A stretch of 64,000 bases of DNA, taken from a virus. Of this stretch, positions 4,109 through 57,953 are shown one piece after another. The stretch lies in the IMG/VR virus record IMGVR_UViG_3300034520_000378, one strand, 5' to 3'. The notes beneath the pieces are model-generated. The model ran no database searches. It saw only the letters and a program-made list of their open reading frames with translations, and was not told the DNA's origin. Position numbers and translations under genes: made by a program. The first letter of the stretch is position 1. Each line of letters starts with the position of its first letter.

Positions 4109-4288
4109 TTACAGTTTCGGCTTCCAGCGCTGGTGTACAAATGGTACCCAGCTGAGGGGGAACTTGCGCGCAGGCCCGATATTGCCTTGTGATGGGAGCG
4201 CACCATCTTCTTTAGCCATTTCCGAACGCACGCCAAGGAAGTAGTCGCCTACTTTTCTAGTAGACGGCCCGGTATTAAAGATATCCAC
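4109..4288 (-). CDS. possible small hypothetical protein (59 aa, MDIFNTGPSTRKVGDYFLG...)
   Basis: GTG-started frame filling the gap 3 nt after the upstream stop; no strong SD. Confidence 0.4.
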   Translation of the reverse strand: MDIFNTGPSTRKVGDYFLGVRSEMAKEDGALPSQGNIGPARKFPLSWVPFVHQRWKPKL

Positions 4289-4291
4289 TAT

Positions 4292-4684
4292 CTACTTGAG
4301 CTTTAAAGCCATGATTTCAATTGTAAACGACATAGCAGCAGTGGGCTTGATGCGCAGGTAAATGTTATTGCTCTCCGTAGTGCACACATATGGCAAGTCA
4401 AGTACGTCATAGAGTTCGCCGGATGCGGGCAGGGAAGCATACTCGACGCGGCCGTCAGTTTCCGCCGTCAATATCTCCACTTCAAACGTATCAGCTGCGT
4501 TGTCTGATGTAACTCTGATTGTCTTGATGAGCACCTTTTGAACGCCAGCCGGTACCGCCACTATTGATGCGGTATCAGCAGGGATTTCTTGCGTTGTGGT
4601 GTTTAACACAATCAGCTCCATATCCCCACCTCCGATTCCGGCCGCGGCCAGCTGCGCTTTGAGCAAGTCAAGCGTACGAGGCAT
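4292..4684 (-). CDS. tail fibre module structural protein (130 aa)
   Basis: ORF, coupled to upstream stop; beta-rich; N-terminus resembles that of 3786..4076. Confidence 0.6.
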   Translation of the reverse strand: MPRTLDLLKAQLAAAGIGGGDMELIVLNTTTQEIPADTASIVAVPAGVQKVLIKTIRVTSDNAADTFEVEILTAETDGRVEYASLPASGELYDVLDLPYVCTTESNNIYLRIKPTAAMSFTIEIMALKLK

Positions 4685-4902: not shown

Positions 4903-5433
4903 CTATCTAGGAATGAGACCGGCCGGCATGACTTCAATAGTCAGCGCCAGCTGGCTGCCGTCATCGGTGGTAACGGTGAGATAGTGAGTACCTGTAACCA
5001 GCGGCGTGCCAGTGATGTAATAGCCGTCGCTGGATATGCTTAAGGAAGTTGGCAGGGCGGGCGAAATGCTCTGAATGCGCTTTTTGTTGGCAGCACCGAA
5101 GGCGATTTGGCACGGCCGCCCCGCAACGACGCGGAAGTAGAGTTCGCCGAGACCGCCTTGTCCAAGTTTCAGCAGGTCAGTCTTAGTAACACCTGTTACC
5201 GGTATCGCTGTTGGTTGTTCTGACACCATTACCGTATCATCTCTTAGAACATATGACGTCAGTCCCGCGCTTATAGTTACAGGATATTTGACAGGTTCAG
5301 CAGCAGGAGCCGCGCACAAAGCAGCCCCTGCTTTGTGTATATATCCATCGCCCGTTTCAAGCATCCGTGCAGGTTCGGCATGACTATGACCGAAATTGTA
5401 TGTGAGACTATCCGTATCGTGAACTATCGGCAT
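4903..5433 (-). CDS. virion protein with C-terminal He_PIG/Ig-like domain
   Basis: 'LPTSLSIS..G.ITGTP...GT.YLTVT' Ig-like signature; AAGGAGG SD. Confidence 0.65.
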   Translation of the reverse strand: MPIVHDTDSLTYNFGHSHAEPARMLETGDGYIHKAGAALCAAPAAEPVKYPVTISAGLTSYVLRDDTVMVSEQPTAIPVTGVTKTDLLKLGQGGLGELYFRVVAGRPCQIAFGAANKKRIQSISPALPTSLSISSDGYYITGTPLVTGTHYLTVTTDDGSQLALTIEVMPAGLIPR

Positions 5434-5446
5434 GCGGTACTCCTCC

Positions 5447-7288
5447 TTATACGGCCGGGCTTGCAGTTACGCTCAGCATGCCGCTTCCCTTAACGATTAT
5501 CGGGACCTCCAGCGAAGCATCGGCCAACGTCTGCACTACAATCGCCTTTTGCCCGTTCGATGCAAATACGGCATTGCCATTGAGAACCAGGTGCACATAA
5601 GCAGCCACACGGTTGTTGCTGGAATCAAACGTGTCAACATATACGCTGCTTGATATATCCACGCCATTGTATGAATAGCTCTGGCTGGCAAACCTGGTGG
5701 CTATAAACATAGATACAGAGGTGTCGGGTATAAGGTCTACGCGCAGGTCATTGGCATTAGCTGAGTATACGCACCAGAGACGCTCCAGGTCGTCAATGCC
5801 GATACCGTGTACATCATCTACAATGCTCTTTGTAAGCACCAGCTTGTCATTCACGGCATCAACCGCAAACATCAAGATTCCCTTCTGGCTTGCCACGATG
5901 ACTGTCTTATAATTACCAGCCACAAACGCCGCTTCCGGCGCAGTCTTGGCATTTACATCGAAAGGTATCGAGTAAACATCGGTCAGTGTAAGCTGGCTGC
6001 CATCGTCGATGCGGAAGAGGTACATCTTTGTACCCTCTGTGCGGTAGCGGAGCGTGGCCAGTGTGTCGTTAGTAACACCTGTATAATCCACCACAGAGTT
6101 GTAGTTCACGCACGGCACGTAGCAGAGGTACTTCTTGGTGCCGTAGTCAAGGTAGAGGAGTTTGTTGACGGTGAACATGGCGGCACCGTTGGCACAGAGG
6201 TAGTAGGCGCAGGCGTTAACAGTGGCAGCCCCCGCTCCCAACTGAGTGATGCCTACCAGGCTTGTTGTCAGGCCGTTCAGGTTTACCGCACAGGCCGCGG
6301 GCGCGGAGACGGTGTTGTTAGCCAGGTCTACCGTCAGCATGGCGATGCCGAAGGTGCCGTCGTCGCCGTAGCTGGTGATAAAGTAGACTTTGCTCCCGTC
6401 CGGCGAGACCGCTGGCTCGCTGTAGAGACAGAAGGCCGATGCGGTATTAACGACCGTTGTCTGGCTGGCCGCCACGGTGTAGATGCCGGTGGCAGGATTA
6501 TAGAGCACAGCGTTGAAGACCGTCGGCGTGTAGGCCTTGCCGTTGTTTGCGCTAGACGTGCGGGTGCCGTAGGAACTGGTCAGCACCACCAGCCTGCCGT
6601 CGGCGGTGGGGCCGAGCACGCCGTGTAGGAAGCAGTAGGAGAACCACGACGGCGCAGAGGGGGAGAAGGCGCTGTTCAGCACCACGGGGTAGCCGTACTT
6701 GGGCGGGTAGAGGGCGTAATAGTTGTAGGCGCCGCTGCTATAGAAAAACCCATCCCCCCTGTACCCTACATACGGCGCCGCCGGCCCGGTGATGCTAGTT
6801 AAAGTCTCTACCCTCAACTGGTCGCGGCCGAAGGTGACCACATTGCTCCCCACCGGAATAAACTTGCTCATGCCGTGCCGGTAGGTACCCCAGGCGGTGC
6901 TGCCGGTGTAGGTATAGTTGGTCTTGAAGTTTGCATCCACCGCTACCAGAGAGAGGAGTTCATCCGGATACCCGATCCACTTGACACCGCCTACGTCCAC
7001 AGCAGACCGTAGAGGCGTGACGCTCGGCGGCAGCGGGCAGCGGTAAGCCGGAGCCGTGCCGTCGCCCAGGTAGCGGCTGTAGTAGCGGGTATTCGTGCAA
7101 ACAGGAGTAATGTTTGCCCTCGCAGAGTAAAGCGGTATCAGAGCCACGCCTTCCGGCACGGGCACCAGCGTTGCTTTGTCATACGGTCTGCCGTTGATAA
7201 ACATGTAGTCGCCGGCTTCAATAATGAGAGGGATGCCTTGAGTATTTGTGAGAGGTTTATTAGTCTTGTAGTCGAAGATAATGGCCAT
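5447..7288 (-). CDS. putative tail fibre/receptor-binding protein (613 aa, beta-rich)
   Basis: Long Tyr/Thr/Gly/Val-rich ORF downstream of the baseplate genes. Confidence 0.6.
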   Translation of the reverse strand: MAIIFDYKTNKPLTNTQGIPLIIEAGDYMFINGRPYDKATLVPVPEGVALIPLYSARANITPVCTNTRYYSRYLGDGTAPAYRCPLPPSVTPLRSAVDVGGVKWIGYPDELLSLVAVDANFKTNYTYTGSTAWGTYRHGMSKFIPVGSNVVTFGRDQLRVETLTSITGPAAPYVGYRGDGFFYSSGAYNYYALYPPKYGYPVVLNSAFSPSAPSWFSYCFLHGVLGPTADGRLVVLTSSYGTRTSSANNGKAYTPTVFNAVLYNPATGIYTVAASQTTVVNTASAFCLYSEPAVSPDGSKVYFITSYGDDGTFGIAMLTVDLANNTVSAPAACAVNLNGLTTSLVGITQLGAGAATVNACAYYLCANGAAMFTVNKLLYLDYGTKKYLCYVPCVNYNSVVDYTGVTNDTLATLRYRTEGTKMYLFRIDDGSQLTLTDVYSIPFDVNAKTAPEAAFVAGNYKTVIVASQKGILMFAVDAVNDKLVLTKSIVDDVHGIGIDDLERLWCVYSANANDLRVDLIPDTSVSMFIATRFASQSYSYNGVDISSSVYVDTFDSSNNRVAAYVHLVLNGNAVFASNGQKAIVVQTLADASLEVPIIVKGSGMLSVTASPAV

Positions 7289-7292
7289 CCTG

Positions 7293-7712
7293 TTAACCCC
7301 CTATTGCAATGTAGTTGACTTGATACTTAACCTTACCTTTCCCTGAGGCACGGATAATGATGTCGTTCCTGATGACTTCAAAAGAGGCTGTGCGCCCGGA
7401 AGGGATAGAGCCTGAGTAGAGCATGTCCTGCCCGCTGTAGACTTCAAAGCTTACAGAATCAGGAGAGGCGTTTGCGATGTCGATGACGCCGTTGATGACC
7501 GCCCCCTGGACTATGCTGTACAGGGAAAAGACATCCTCTAACTGCTGGGTGTCGAACTCGACCTCTGCCGATTCAGATTTGATCTGGGTGGACATGGAGT
7601 TGAGCCTATCGGCAAGCGTTGCTTTACCGCCGCGCGCTTCGGCGATCTCATTCCTGAGCGCTTCTATCTTAAGGCTGTGTATCTGATAGTCCTGTATGCG
7701 TGTGGTTGCCAT
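7293..7712 (-). CDS. virion structural protein (139 aa)
   Basis: AAGGAGG SD; 'EIAEARGGKATLADRL' motif common in tail/baseplate proteins. Confidence 0.65.
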   Translation of the reverse strand: MATTRIQDYQIHSLKIEALRNEIAEARGGKATLADRLNSMSTQIKSESAEVEFDTQQLEDVFSLYSIVQGAVINGVIDIANASPDSVSFEVYSGQDMLYSGSIPSGRTASFEVIRNDIIIRASGKGKVKYQVNYIAIGG

Positions 7713-56456: not shown

Positions 56457-56459
56457 TCG

Positions 56460-56594
56460 GAGCTACACCTCCCCATGCTACGTTTCCATCAATTGTATTC
56501 AAAGGCCCACCGCCTTGCGGTTCGGGTAAAGGCCGAACAGCAAAGGACAGGTGAGCGCGATCCACTCTGTATGTACATGCGCTAGTTAACTAGC
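56460..56594 (-). promoter_or_regulatory. structured speD leader containing a 29-codon uORF (56578..56489)
   Basis: 133-nt gap; uORF MYIQSGSRSPVLCCSAFTRTARRWAFEYN; hairpin CCC-GA-ACCG-CAAGG-CGGT-GGG; uORF lacks a clear SD. Confidence 0.4.
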
Positions 56595-56793
56595 AGCACA
56601 CGTTTGCTACGTACTCTACACCGTCCTCGTCCTGGTCTATGCTAAAGATGATCCAATCCTTGTCAGCTAATACAGTGTGCACATCATATCGTACTTCGGG
56701 GTTAGCAAGGCAAACGAATTCGCTGCCTTGCAGTTCAAACACCAGCACAGCGTCACGCCTAACGTCTCCAACATAGATTGCTCTGGTTCGCAC
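56590..56793 (-). CDS. small hypothetical protein
   Basis: GTG start with GGGTG SD; 67 aa. Confidence 0.5.
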   Translation of the reverse strand: MRTRAIYVGDVRRDAVLVFELQGSEFVCLANPEVRYDVHTVLADKDWIIFSIDQDEDGVEYVANVCC

Positions 56794-56810
56794 GATAGAT
56801 CACCCTGGTA

Positions 56811-56942
56811 TGACGAGGCAGGCTGGGATTTGCACCCAGCATGGTGGCCTTTCCGCTGCCACCTCGGGGCTTATACCAAGCAGTGGGCAGGAGCCTTGCG
56901 GTCCTCCACATCCCTAGCGTTTACCTATTCCGCCACTGCCTC
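56811..56942 (-). ncRNA. tRNA-like RNA (~132 nt) without a recognisable anticodon arm
   Basis: Acceptor GAGGCAG/CTGCCTC, D-arm TGGCGGAATAGGTAAACGC, T-arm GCTGG-GTGCAAATC-CCAGC, ~75-nt structured insert; intergenic. Confidence 0.8.
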
Positions 56943-57020
56943 GAAAGTTTGCTTTAAGAAGCATTAAAGCCGGCCCCGGAATACCGTGACCGTGAACTCC
57001 TTCTACACATGGTAGATGAG

Positions 57021-57953
57021 CTATTTCCCGCATAAAGCCGCGGACGGATATGCGGTTACAAATCCATATCCAGTGTATCTATCAAGCCCTGTTTTCCCTA
57101 TGTCAACGGTCATAAGCCTTGTAATAGTCTTAAGCTCGCCGGCTGTAGGCTTGCGTCCTGTGCGCTTCACGAACTTCTCTATTACGCACGCTGCAAAGGC
57201 CGCCACATGCGGACAGGCCATAGATGTGCCGCTCATGTTTGCATAACTGGAGTTGATATAGGTTGATACAATGTCTTCACCCGGTGCGGCTACCTCTACG
57301 TGGTCGTTTGTGTTTGTGAAATAGCACGCTGCAAAGTTGTGCTTTATCGCACCAACGGAAAGCGTCTCGGGATACGCCGCCGGATAGTCAAGCTCAATAG
57401 TGCTGTCATTGCCATCACCGGAATTTCCTGCTGCACACACAACAAGCATGCCGCTTGCAAAGGCCTTTCTCACAGCAGCGGCAAGCAAAGGATGATGATC
57501 AGGCCCGCCAAGGCTCATGTTTATAACATCCACCTTTTCGCCGTTAGGCCCGCGCCAGTTGACAGCATAGTCAAGCGCACGAATCACCCTGTCGGTACTG
57601 CACTGGCCACTGGCGTCAAACACCTTGATTATGAGCAGCTTGGCGTCCGGCGCGCCACCTCTGATCCGTCCGTTTGCGGCTATTATCCCCGCAACGTGCG
57701 TTCCGTGTCCGTTCTCGTCCCTGATATCCGATATGCTCTGTCCATCCACCAGGTTCATACCACCAATGATATTGGCCTTTAGATCGGGATGGTTCACATC
57801 ACAGCCGGAGTCTATAACCGCTACTACTACGCCTTTGCCGCTGCACTCCTTCCACAGGTGCTGGAACCCCATGAGCTTTATGTTGTCGAAGGTGCTGTTC
57901 ACTGCCTCGAAAACGGTAAGCTCATGCGCTTGTACGTCAAAAAGCTGCATCAC
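57021..57953 (-). CDS. subtilisin-like S8 serine protease (intracellular type)
   Basis: Catalytic triad VIDSG, HGTHVAG, GTSMACPHV; oxyanion AAGN; no signal peptide. Confidence 0.95.
   Translation of the reverse strand: MMQLFDVQAHELTVFEAVNSTFDNIKLMGFQHLWKECSGKGVVVAVIDSGCDVNHPDLKANIIGGMNLVDGQSISDIRDENGHGTHVAGIIAANGRIRGGAPDAKLLIIKVFDASGQCSTDRVIRALDYAVNWRGPNGEKVDVINMSLGGPDHHPLLAAAVRKAFASGMLVVCAAGNSGDGNDSTIELDYPAAYPETLSVGAIKHNFAACYFTNTNDHVEVAAPGEDIVSTYINSSYANMSGTSMACPHVAAFAACVIEKFVKRTGRKPTAGELKTITRLMTVDIGKTGLDRYTGYGFVTAYPSAALCGK

Follow-up and report, generated by a model that had tools for sequence, protein, structure and literature searches.

A tRNA-Leu-derived RNA without an anticodon arm in a giant phage is a copy of a family widespread in Bacillota phages and prophages

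The window analysed here is a stretch of 64,000 nucleotides from IMG/VR virus record IMGVR_UViG_3300034520_000378, a phage of approximately 200 kb. Genes for an S8 peptidase, SpeD and a portal protein, a 67-aa ORF and small ORFs lie within about 3 kb of the locus. Between the S8 peptidase gene and the 67-aa ORF, the minus strand carries a tRNA-like RNA at 56942-56815, with G56814 as discriminator. These limits come from the match to R1, a covariance model whose seed is composed of 70 other members of the RNA family described below, the window being left out. The features of the locus are the following:

56457-57120, minus strand: accessory block and recently exchanged tract, without counterpart in relatives (also by sliding identity)
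56944-57020, minus strand: 77-nt leader from the S8 peptidase stop codon to the RNA, with three small hairpins (fold)
56815-56942, minus strand: whole tRNA-like RNA (cmsearch with R1, 68.2 bits, E 4.4e-17, sole match in the 64-kb window)
56936-56942, minus strand: acceptor stem 5' strand GAGGCAG, pairing perfectly with 56815-56821; the helix covaries in the family
56917-56935, minus strand: U8 G9 (56935-56934) and Leu-type D-arm GCG/GAAUAGGUAAA/CGC (sequence)
56864-56916, minus strand: branched insert at the anticodon-arm position (MFE fold and relaxed ARAGORN drawing)
56843-56863, minus strand: hairpin 3, with a 6-bp stem and a 9-nt loop, at the class II variable-arm position (fold)
56822-56842, minus strand: AU (U48 equivalent) and T arm GCUGGG/UGCAAAU/CCCAGC (sequence)
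56815-56821, minus strand: acceptor stem 3' strand CUGCCUC (sequence, fold and R1 match)
56806-56814, minus strand: discriminator G56814 and trailer UCAUACCA, the trailer probably not in the mature RNA
56590-56793, minus strand: 67-aa ORF, inserted together with the RNA (ORF list; relatives without it)

The RNA and the 67-aa ORF are an insertion in this giant phage that its relatives lack. In six relatives the S8 peptidase gene stands directly before speD, and no such RNA was found beside the S8 peptidase homologues at 19 IMG/VR loci and in six close relatives, which identifies the element as an insertion. A sliding nucleotide comparison with the contig of one relative, L024, shows identity rising from about 78% to about 98% near position 57120, and L024 carries the element with an 81-nt internal deletion. 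The 67-aa ORF is the next ORF downstream of the trailer, beginning at 56793; it has a weak match to phrog_28883, and no homologue of it was found beside other family members. No promoter or terminator was detected in a scan near the window copy that included the leader. The element is identical in three independent assemblies, and an exact search of IMG/VR with a 20-mer from the window T arm and acceptor strand gave no match.

An earlier note, made from the letters alone, had described a tRNA mimic at this place in which a branched domain replaces the anticodon arm, and every element that it described was found, on the minus strand. The perfect 7-bp acceptor stem (GAGGCAG 56942-56936 with CTGCCTC 56821-56815, plus a possible eighth pair C56943:G56814) and the Leu-type D-arm at 56933-56917, which carries A14, A15, G18 and G19, are as it had reported. 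The variant T loop UGCAAAU is also present, in a T arm at 56840-56822 whose stem has six pairs, not five. The three hairpins placed between the D-arm and the T arm exist as well, the first one, with its GCAA tetraloop, being longer than had been drawn. They make up an insert of 72 nt, in which a closing stem (GGG 56914-56912 with CCC 56868-56866) encloses hairpin 1 at 56909-56883 and hairpin 2 at 56881-56869. All tertiary-contact nucleotides are intact in the sequence of the window copy. The 3' end given as G-UCA-UACCA is correct as sequence and the trailer reads UCA, not CCA, but UACCA is no feature of the family. The trailer is probably outside the mature RNA, since CCA is encoded in three of the 167 members collected and U directly follows the discriminator in 59% of them. 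The single-sequence fold of the window RNA surpasses shuffles only modestly (z -2.25); the decisive evidence for this RNA is comparative.

Standard detectors do not recognise the element. In the window, ARAGORN reported 0 genes in default, intron, tmRNA and mitochondrial modes, and Rfam 15 gave no match at gathering thresholds, nor with the limit relaxed to E 10; this includes the tRNA model (RF00005), the tmRNA models (RF00023 and the permuted form) and the Y-RNA-like models, and at the element itself no group I or group II intron was matched. The RNA has G55 and six T-stem pairs where a canonical tRNA has U54-U55-C56 and 7/5 geometry, and it has no cloverleaf anticodon arm with a 5-bp stem and a 7-nt loop. 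The reading of the earlier note as a non-decoding RNA with a branched domain therefore stands: the element is neither a normal nor an intron-bearing tRNA, it is not in Rfam, and it is conserved, as judged by the score from a model that excludes it.

The window stretch is one copy of a widespread and strongly conserved tRNA-Leu-derived RNA family of Bacillota phages and prophages. At least 167 distinct members were collected from IMG/VR phage contigs, cultured phages and Bacillota prophages, in scans of up to about 120 loci each. The cultured carriers are phages of Listeria, Leuconostoc, Lactobacillus, Enterococcus, Bacillus and Paenibacillus, including Listeria phage vB_LmoS_188, Leuconostoc phage Ln-9, Lactobacillus phage phiJL-1, Enterococcus phage EFDG1 and Bacillus phage Goe24; 40-kb temperate phages are among them, and many gut and rumen prophages carry the RNA. 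Among the matches listed, true members are in Bacillota genomes only. Of the stem cells in the R1 alignment 98.6% are paired, whereas shuffling gives 73% and sliding the partners 36-43%, and double changes occur in 13 of 16 pairs; the covariation score is 0.686, and 0.17 and 0.04-0.12 in these two controls, respectively. The acceptor helix is 98% paired in spite of 99 different 5' strands among the 167 RNAs. Because G-U pairs in the stems (49) far exceed A-C pairs (10), the transcribed strand is fixed.

The core shared by these RNAs begins with a 7-bp acceptor stem whose last pair is G7:C66; U8 G9 and a D-arm of the form G(C/U)G / GAAUAGGUA(G/A)A / C(G/A)C come next, the D loop being near-invariant. 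On the 3' side, AU precedes a covarying T stem of six pairs (G...GG / CC...C) in 162 of 167 members, and the T loop is UGCAAAU, with G where tRNAs have U55, in 157; the T stem adjoins the acceptor 3' strand. The commonest discriminator is A73 (62% of the family). The window RNA shows the family characters: a significant R1 score, the acceptor stem and D-arm, the AU with its T arm, a structured insert in place of an anticodon arm, and no encoded CCA. No anticodon stem-loop is conserved across the family, and in the shortest members a middle of about 20 nt, with no anticodon arm, separates the D and T arms, so that members cannot decode. No published description of the family was found, by its signature motifs or otherwise, in literature outside subscription journals. 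Bulk catalogues, for instance PMC10690425, may hold the motif unnamed.

Between the two conserved halves lies a hypervariable middle of 20-230 nt, with 141 insert types among the 167 RNAs; no similar insert to that of the window was found in any other member. The whole RNAs have a median length of 124 nt and reach 284 nt, and their inserts are structured, with compensatory changes between related ones. Among 11 phage pairs whose flanks agree at 85% identity or more on both sides, seven carry unrelated inserts; 17 pairs, in contrast, have in common an insert (70-82% identity) while their acceptor and T stems differ. Searches for Rfam motifs inside the longest members found none, and complementarity of inserts to the surrounding phage DNA at their own loci showed no enrichment. 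These data point to the branched domain of the window RNA as belonging to a set of over 100 exchangeable inserts carried by a constant chassis.

Across the family, neighbouring ORFs are mostly on the same strand as the RNA, and promoter-like sites are no more frequent upstream of it than in the control (16 of 158, against 16). In lytic phages, members lie within tRNA arrays or directly after tmRNA; in Enterococcus phage EFDG1, for instance, the RNA starts 3 nt after the phage tmRNA gene. In temperate phages the RNA is at the boundary of a late-activator gene and terS/terL. Late activators, terminase subunits, HNH, SSB and YopX recur as annotated neighbour families, and the loci examined have no conserved protein-coding neighbour in common. 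In Listeria phages the RNA comes after the 5' portion of rliG, a leader RNA; vB_LmoS_188 and B025 carry the tRNA-like RNA at the same spot, where phage A118 is without it, and the A118 form of rliG, with a terminator of its own, lacks a tRNA-like part. The rliG RNA (RF02415) was rejected as the identity of the family RNA, being a neighbouring upstream leader. The cabRNA of staphylococcal phages is unrelated, the likeness being a chance 7-mer text match in a printed host RNA sequence.

The core has in common with canonical class II tRNA-Leu (RF00005) a 7-bp acceptor stem, U8, U48, G53:C61, C56, A58 and, probably, processing out of operon transcripts, and phage tRNA-Leu(UAA) genes have a 3-bp D stem and a D loop with A14, A15, G18 and G19 identical to that of the family. 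However, canonical phage tRNA-Leu genes with the identical D-arm have a 5-bp T stem and a UUCGA-type loop, whereas the family has no anticodon arm, a G55 loop, 7/6 geometry, a variable discriminator and the 20-230 nt insert. In engineered tRNA scaffolds, and in the small RNAs that murine gammaherpesvirus 68 links to tRNAs, a tRNA body is the handle through which an unrelated RNA module is processed and stabilised; these are artificial and eukaryotic-virus systems, and the likeness would be one of function only. To our knowledge, the engineered tRNA scaffold has no natural counterpart in bacteria or phages.

The earlier note had likened the element to T4 RNA C/D, which holds as an analogy and not as a relationship by the family model. 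T4 rnaC and rnaD (species 1 and 2) are also small stable non-decoding RNAs, encoded in a phage tRNA cluster, and a T arm and ends that pair are present in rnaC. However, the T loop of rnaC is the canonical UUCGAAU and its D-arm is not of Leu type, the folds of both differ from that of the family, and the T4 host, a proteobacterium, is unlike the family hosts. With R1, rnaC scores 7.3 bits (E 0.44), while rnaD gives no match in sense orientation and 5.8 bits (E 1.1) in antisense. The two T4 RNAs are analogues, not relatives.

Like the family, the tRNA-like domain of tmRNA keeps acceptor and T arms, lacks an anticodon arm and has a large insert between its halves; unlike it, the family has a full D-arm, no tag reading frame, and inserts that are unrelated and variable. 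In the window, pair 3:70 is G56940:C56817, not G:U, and the insert is too short and structured for a tag ORF. YrlA-type Y RNAs, partners of Ro60/Rsr, are non-coding RNAs with a tRNA-like module that are also found in phages (Chen et al. 2014, PMC4201824). The family likewise carries such a module, with an acceptor-like stem and D and T arms. In YrlA RNAs the Ro-binding helix is built from the two termini, with the tRNA-like module on the opposite side of the molecule, whereas the ends of family RNAs form a 7-bp acceptor stem of freely varying sequence; no Ro60-like gene was found by Pfam among the window-copy neighbours examined (about 3 kb). Finally, the Lak megaphages of Prevotella have tRNAs with "enigmatic introns" and an assignable anticodon (Devoto et al. 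2019, PMC6784885). Their genes are also oversized, with conserved inserts, and are missed by standard tRNA finders, but the family is without any anticodon.

The reading we prefer, and hold tentatively, is that the constant core is a chassis for processing and stability, kept out of translation and carrying exchangeable effector modules. The RNA would be transcribed within a phage operon without its own promoter and excised by host tRNA-maturation enzymes: RNase P would make the 5' end and RNase Z would cut behind the discriminator, with CCA probably added after the RNase Z cut. Co-transcription and processing are supported by the lack of a promoter, the same-strand neighbours, the tRNA-array setting, the missing CCA and the U after the discriminator. 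The processing enzymes would need only the conserved upper half, and the product would be a stable tRNA-shaped RNA. G55, the sixth T-stem pair (7/6 in place of 7/5) and the missing anticodon arm may exclude it from EF-Tu and the ribosome, exclusion from EF-Tu by G55 and the 7/6 stack being suggested by analogy with tRNA-Sec. A core that is both conserved and excluded from translation is proposed to serve as chassis. The working part would then be the lineage-specific folded insert, here a three-way junction and a variable-arm hairpin, as supported by the 141 insert types, the swaps between similar flanks and the reuse of inserts on different cores. It would act in trans on a partner from the host or a rival phage, plausibly in defence or counter-defence.

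A fuller form of this proposal seems possible but doubtful: a natural "tRNA scaffold", matured by RNase P and RNase Z and barred from translation, whose well over a hundred swapped modules are effectors in trans in phage-host or phage-phage conflict. The module cassettes would be swapped by recombination within the conserved arms. The preferred reading also draws on the accessory nature of the RNA, which follows from the six relatives without it, the L024 deletion and its absence from A118. Against this reading, cassette replacement could be neutral phage mosaicism with the conserved arms as recombination sites, and the near-invariant D and T loops could make the core itself the ligand. No partner was found among neighbour genes or through complementarity to the surrounding phage DNA.

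An unlikely alternative gives the element a role in cis: RNase P and RNase Z cuts would separate cistrons or give the mRNA defined, stabler ends, the excised RNA and its insert being irrelevant. The absence of an own promoter between same-strand genes agrees with such punctuation, as do conservation limited to what RNase P and RNase Z recognise, the temperate-phage position between the late-activator gene and terS/terL, and the Listeria members after the 5' part of the rliG leader. However, an irrelevant insert should shrink, and the inserts are long and structured; the same insert is kept on different cores, and members within tRNA arrays need no added cut site. G55, the sixth T-stem pair and the Leu-type D loop, none of them a known need of RNase P or RNase Z, are also left unexplained.

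Rather unlikely, too, is a decoy, in which the core mimics the body of class II tRNA-Leu and soaks up a binding or damaging host factor, for instance a defence nuclease cleaving in the variable region or a toxin by which the acceptor end is modified, with decoding undisturbed. The D-arm identical to that of canonical phage tRNA-Leu genes, the invariant elbow, the restriction to Bacillota phages and a patchy accessory distribution, as in anti-defence genes, are consistent with it, and the hypervariable part corresponds to the exact site where Septu and retron-Eco7 cleave class II tRNA-Tyr (PMC13096335). However, a defence of this kind is known neither for tRNA-Leu nor from the carrier hosts, G55 and 7/6 geometry make the RNA an imperfect copy of its supposed target, and bait for an anticodon nuclease is absent. 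Conservation of inserts on different cores fits an effector module better than a cleavage-resistant filler.

It is improbable that the CCA-added RNA is leucylated, supplying leucine for non-ribosomal use or titrating LeuRS. Leucylation is conceivable because LeuRS does not read the anticodon: leucine identity depends chiefly on A73 and A14, and charging is possible without the anticodon arm (PMC9976931). The Leu-type core with U8:A14 and A15/U48, and A73 as commonest discriminator, would suit this. However, A73 is missing in 38% of members, and the window has G73, a LeuRS antideterminant in E. coli tRNA-Ser; both weigh against a general LeuRS role. Moreover, the extra T-stem pair alters the distance from elbow to 3' end, and the nearby genes include no enzyme that uses Leu-tRNA. 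The earlier note had named a decoy, a ligand of a synthetase, the ribosome or a T-box, and an mRNA processing signal without preferring any; of these, the T-box ligand is weighed against by the lack of an anticodon.

A functionless, decaying tRNA-Leu pseudogene, or a chance likeness, is very improbable. The internal deletion in L024 and the dispensability of the element in other relatives would agree with decay, but not the score of 68 bits by a model excluding the window, the intact tertiary-contact nucleotides, the identity in three independent assemblies or the compensatory changes pervasive across 167 members. Scarcely credible is a decoding tRNA with an intron, namely the tRNA-His(GUG) with a 36-nt intron at 37/38 that relaxed ARAGORN calls at 90% of its threshold, even with the unexplained introns of Lak megaphage tRNAs (PMC6784885) as precedent, since nothing appears at default thresholds with or without introns or with the Rfam tRNA model at E up to 10, the anticodon stem is mismatched, the proposed intron cuts the strongest hairpin and is too short for a group I intron (none in Rfam), the long variable arm and Leu-type D-arm are unlike tRNA-His, and the family has no conserved anticodon stem-loop, the D and T arms of some members lying about 20 nt apart.

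If the scaffold reading is true, a very common class of phage RNA genes, invisible to ARAGORN and absent from Rfam 15, has been left unannotated, and genome annotation would profit from a model able to tell these RNAs apart from tRNA genes and pseudogenes. The family also bears on the role of non-decoding tRNA-like RNAs in phages, a question that dates back to T4 species 1 and 2, and because several carriers are easily handled laboratory phages the idea is directly testable. With its constant tRNA top half and hypervariable, shuffled inserts, the family would provide the engineered tRNA scaffold with a first natural counterpart in bacteria, and a large set of structured RNA modules would be opened to experiment.

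An earlier note had read 56806-56943 as a tRNA mimic in which a branched domain replaces the anticodon arm. We confirmed the tRNA-like element, all parts of which lie on the minus strand, and both the fold and comparison with a family of similar RNAs support the structural reading. The parts are as follows:

56942-56815, minus strand: tRNA-like RNA, with discriminator G56814
56942-56936 (GAGGCAG) and 56821-56815 (CUGCCUC), minus strand: acceptor stem, perfectly paired
56933-56917, minus strand: D-arm following U8 and G9, with a 3-bp stem and the loop GAAUAGGUAAA
56914-56912 (GGG) and 56868-56866 (CCC), minus strand: stem closing a three-way junction
56909-56883, minus strand: junction hairpin 1, 27 nt, with a GCAA loop
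56881-56869, minus strand: junction hairpin 2, 13 nt
56863-56843, minus strand: hairpin 3, with a 6-bp stem, in the place of a class II tRNA variable arm
56842-56822, minus strand: T arm, AU and then GCUGGG/CCCAGC (six pairs) with the loop UGCAAAU
3' of G56814: trailer UCAUACCA, leading to the ORF
56793, minus strand: GTG start of a 67-aa ORF

The window RNA has the full set of tRNA-elbow nucleotides (U8, A14, A15, G18, G19, U48, G53:C61, U54, C56 and A58), and its D and T arms are 72 nt apart. ARAGORN identified no tRNA and no tmRNA in the whole 64 kb, and Rfam 15 gave no match in the window at gathering thresholds and none relevant at E up to 10; neither search, as proposed in that note, thus calls a normal tRNA or a known family at default or gathering thresholds. 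With introns allowed and the threshold at 90%, ARAGORN proposes a "tRNA-His(GUG) with a 36-nt intron" here, a drawing that was rejected because its anticodon stem is mismatched and the strongest hairpin is split in two. The surrounding genes are all co-oriented, and no promoter-like or terminator-like sites were detected near the RNA.

Short BLAST matches to the window D-arm and T arm gave entry to the family. The first three phages with the same architecture and a different sequence were Enterococcus phage EFDG1, where the RNA lies 3 nt downstream of the phage tmRNA gene, a Latilactobacillus prophage-derived phage and Bacillus phage Goe24. Scanning IMG/VR with the T-arm pattern CATGNNNGGTGCAAATCCNNNC identified at least 119 loci, nearly all with a perfectly complementary 7-nt acceptor strand 76-285 nt upstream, followed by TGGCGGAATAGGTAGACGC. 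A second scan, with this D-arm 19-mer as query, returned two classes of match: canonical phage tRNA-Leu of 81-87 nt, mostly with anticodon UAA, 5-bp T stems and UUCGA-type loops, and the mimic, whose T stems have 6 bp and whose loop is UGCAAAU in 28 cases and, in rare others, UGCGAAU, UUCAAAU or UGUAAAU. When one genome per prokaryotic species was scanned for the same T-arm pattern, chance matches were numerous in all phyla. The full architecture was present at 41 prokaryotic loci, which belong to Bacillota wherever a taxon is named, except for one MAG labelled Kiritimatiellia; one further MAG is labelled Tenericutes and two have no taxon. Carriers include Lactobacillaceae, Weissella, Enterococcus, Bacillus, Paenibacillus, Exiguobacterium, many Clostridia, Christensenella, Tepidanaerobacter and Dethiobacter, and cultured carrier phages infect, among others, Leuconostoc, Listeria, Lactobacillus, Weissella, Paenibacillus and Enterococcus. 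The resulting sample has 167 distinct RNAs of 75 to 284 nt (median 124).

Across the 167 RNAs, acceptor 5' strands come in 99 versions and T stems in 28, with 98% and 99% of cells paired, respectively; these percentages are inflated by the membership filter (a minimum of six pairs in the 7-bp acceptor and of five in the 6-bp T stem), which cannot create the diversity of compensating pair types, since it does not dictate the identity of the pairing bases. Acceptor positions 2-6 contain all four Watson-Crick pair types. Family stems contain 49 G-U pairs versus 10 A-C, as expected if the annotated strand is the transcribed RNA. In a MAFFT alignment of 70 filtered members, window excluded, 98.6% of cells are paired (73.4% when shuffled, 36-43% with slid partners), double changes occur at 13 of 16 pairs, and the covariation score reaches 0.686 (0.17 for shuffled alignments). 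The covariance model suggested in the earlier note, built from this alignment (R1), recovers the window RNA as its single match in 64 kb (68.2 bits, E 4.4e-17). Cultured-phage members score 49-83 bits, a truncated copy on contig L024 only 24.9 bits, and relatives without the insertion gave no match. These RNAs form a conserved family, structured and specific to one strand, that derives from tRNA-Leu or imitates it; its members are unable to decode and are accessory genes within phage operons.

G7:C66, U8, G9, the outermost T-stem pair and the two loop-closing G:C pairs are near-invariant, and the D loop GAAUAGGUAGA, the AU before the T stem and the T loop UGCAAAU occur in 130, 162 and 157 of the 167 RNAs. 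Every member is separated from real tRNAs by G instead of U at position 55 and by the sixth T-stem pair, with which the acceptor and T stems stack over 13 bp (7/6). At the discriminator, A is commonest (62%), ahead of U (23%), G (8%) and C (7%); the next base is U in 59% of members, and CCA is encoded in 3 of 167. One subfamily (L040, L074, L089, L102, L109, L110, L152 and other loci) has, beside the middle insert, a structured insertion of 25-110 nt that separates the G18 and G19 equivalents of the D loop, with the pattern GGAAUAG / ACACC...GGUGG...AAUA / GUAGACGC. Three IMG/VR loci (L177, L188 and L210) carry oversized RNAs of 138-148 nt with the same Leu-type D-arm, a canonical 5-bp T arm and a second internal T-arm-like hairpin (GGGG-UUCGACU-CCCC and similar). 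ARAGORN made no call on them, and they could represent a separate type of compound tRNA-like RNA.

No conserved anticodon arm was found in the family middles, the shortest of which are only about 20 nt. Members with identical 7-nt acceptors (14 with GTGCTTG, 8 with TATGCGG, and others) have middles no closer than random pairs (median similarity 0.49 versus 0.47 background). Among 11 phage pairs with both 300-nt flanks at least 85% identical, the middles are unrelated in seven (46-59% identity, the background range); loci L076 and L080, for instance, have flanks 97% and 93% identical and the same acceptor, with middles of 74 and 51 nt. At 70% identity there are 141 insert types, 125 of them singletons, and the window insert is unique in the sample. 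Conversely, 17 pairs have an insert in common at 70-82% identity on cores differing in both acceptor and T stems, as in EFDG1 and two gut-virome contigs, and hairpins of related inserts show compensating substitutions. Exchange, sharing across cores and compensating changes together argue that inserts are neither junk nor one conserved domain; on these sequence comparisons they appear to be many conserved modules reshuffled on a constant frame.

The window is DNA of a large tailed phage, with a portal protein that most resembles those of Bacillus phage 0305phi8-36 (49%) and Moorella phage MTATph1 (38%). Within the packaging/head region, the terminase genes and a gene for a subtilisin-like S8 peptidase precede the RNA, and the 67-aa ORF, the gene for a SpeD-type decarboxylase and the portal gene follow it. 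In six relatives (peptidase 58-68% identical) the S8 peptidase gene directly precedes speD, with both the RNA and the small ORF absent, so these two form an accessory insertion. The relatives' spacing here is only about 15-20 nt, and a 133-nt non-coding gap between the ORF and speD (56457-56589) is part of the same inserted block. The RNA region is unchanged in three independent assemblies, two spanning the whole RNA and the third (L023) ending inside it. L024 is a fourth, more distant contig (S8 peptidase 80% identical), whose nucleotide identity to the window is ~78% over the peptidase gene, rises to ~98% some 100 nt before its stop and holds through the RNA. Its copy (L024:3424-3553) has lost 81 nt between short direct repeats, from the D-arm to the 5' side of hairpin 3, leaving an acceptor/T-arm minihelix. 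The block looks like one recently exchanged and dispensable in at least one lineage. A stretch of ~33 nt overlapping the peptidase stop (56990-57025, minus strand; hairpin UCUAC-CAUGU-GUAGA, then AGGAG) is 97% identical to part of marine Vibrio phage 1.084.O (L363:601-635), in the 1 kb of non-coding sequence that follows an HNH nuclease gene; searches for tRNAs and with Rfam and R1 gave no match at that Vibrio phage stretch.

In temperate siphophages the RNA is co-oriented with its neighbours, just downstream of a late transcriptional activator gene (phrog_248, phrog_36/Alt-like, or annotated "sigma-70" in Listeria phages), with terS and terL 1-2.4 kb downstream and often an HNH gene between. 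In the cos phages phiJL-1 and Ln-9, with records that begin at the cohesive end, it is the last genome element. In Listeria phages it comes after the first 157 nt of the Rfam sRNA rliG (RF02415): phage A118 has full rliG with its own terminator and lacks the tRNA-like part, and in vB_LmoS_188 and B025 the mimic takes the place of the terminator-bearing 3' part. rliG itself is modular, the first 157 nt being common and the 3' part swapped (L360:1249-1396, L361:610-981, L362:598-835), and in B025 an mcrA RNA motif (RF03010) lies just downstream. rliG is reported to be expressed in lysogens and to be dispensable for virion production in phi10403S (PMC7397523), which is not evidence of mimic expression. 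In large lytic phages the RNA lies within tRNA arrays. On contig L126 a ROOL RNA (RF03087, 263 bits; 6641-7219) is located about 10 nt upstream of a 285-nt mimic (~7230-7513). A phage tRNA array on L086 has Rfam tRNA matches spanning 151 and 124 nt (4216-4366 and 5279-5402, minus strand), probably tRNAs with large insertions. Upstream of family members promoter-like sites are not enriched (16/158, control 16), and terminator-like sites within 90 nt downstream show a modest enrichment (23 versus 7).

Bacillus subtilis RNase Z prefers CCA-less precursors. The conserved parts coincide exactly with what RNase P, RNase Z and the CCA-adding enzyme recognise. CCA is generally not encoded, U tends to follow the discriminator and promoters are lacking; taken together, these features suggest that the RNA would be excised from the operon transcript like a CCA-less tRNA. 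By analogy with tRNA-Sec and its 13-bp stack, G55, the 7/6 geometry and the absence of an anticodon arm would keep it from TruB, EF-Tu and the ribosome. Because the insert behaves as a cassette, we tentatively favour, as a possible design, a constant core serving as chassis for an insert module that would be the effector. It is unlikely that the excised RNA is just the by-product of a cis processing signal, and next in order, also improbable, comes a constant core acting as bait for a factor that attacks class II tRNAs. Charging by LeuRS is very doubtful. Its appeal is that A73 and A14 specify leucine identity, with the anticodon arm dispensable; against it, G73, present in the window copy, is an antideterminant (PMC9976931), and A73 is missing in 38% of members.

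By sequence, the closest relative is canonical tRNA-Leu, from which the mimic differs in three defining features: anticodon arm, U55 and 7/5 geometry. T4 rnaC and rnaD are its functional analogues without being related to it. The idea of a tRNA-like module is also found in tmRNA and in YrlA-type Y RNAs. The mimic lacks the defining features of tmRNA and matches no Rfam Y-RNA model at E up to 10, its ends forming an acceptor stem instead of a Ro-binding helix; none of the genes examined within about 3 kb of the window copy is Ro60-like by Pfam. The anticodon, absent from the mimic, is retained in the Lak megaphage tRNAs with "enigmatic introns". Full-text literature searches found no published description of the family, although a bulk catalogue of phage structured RNAs (PMC10690425) may include it unnamed. 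The mimic joins the tRNA-like, non-decoding RNAs of phages, with an unusual and testable modular architecture.
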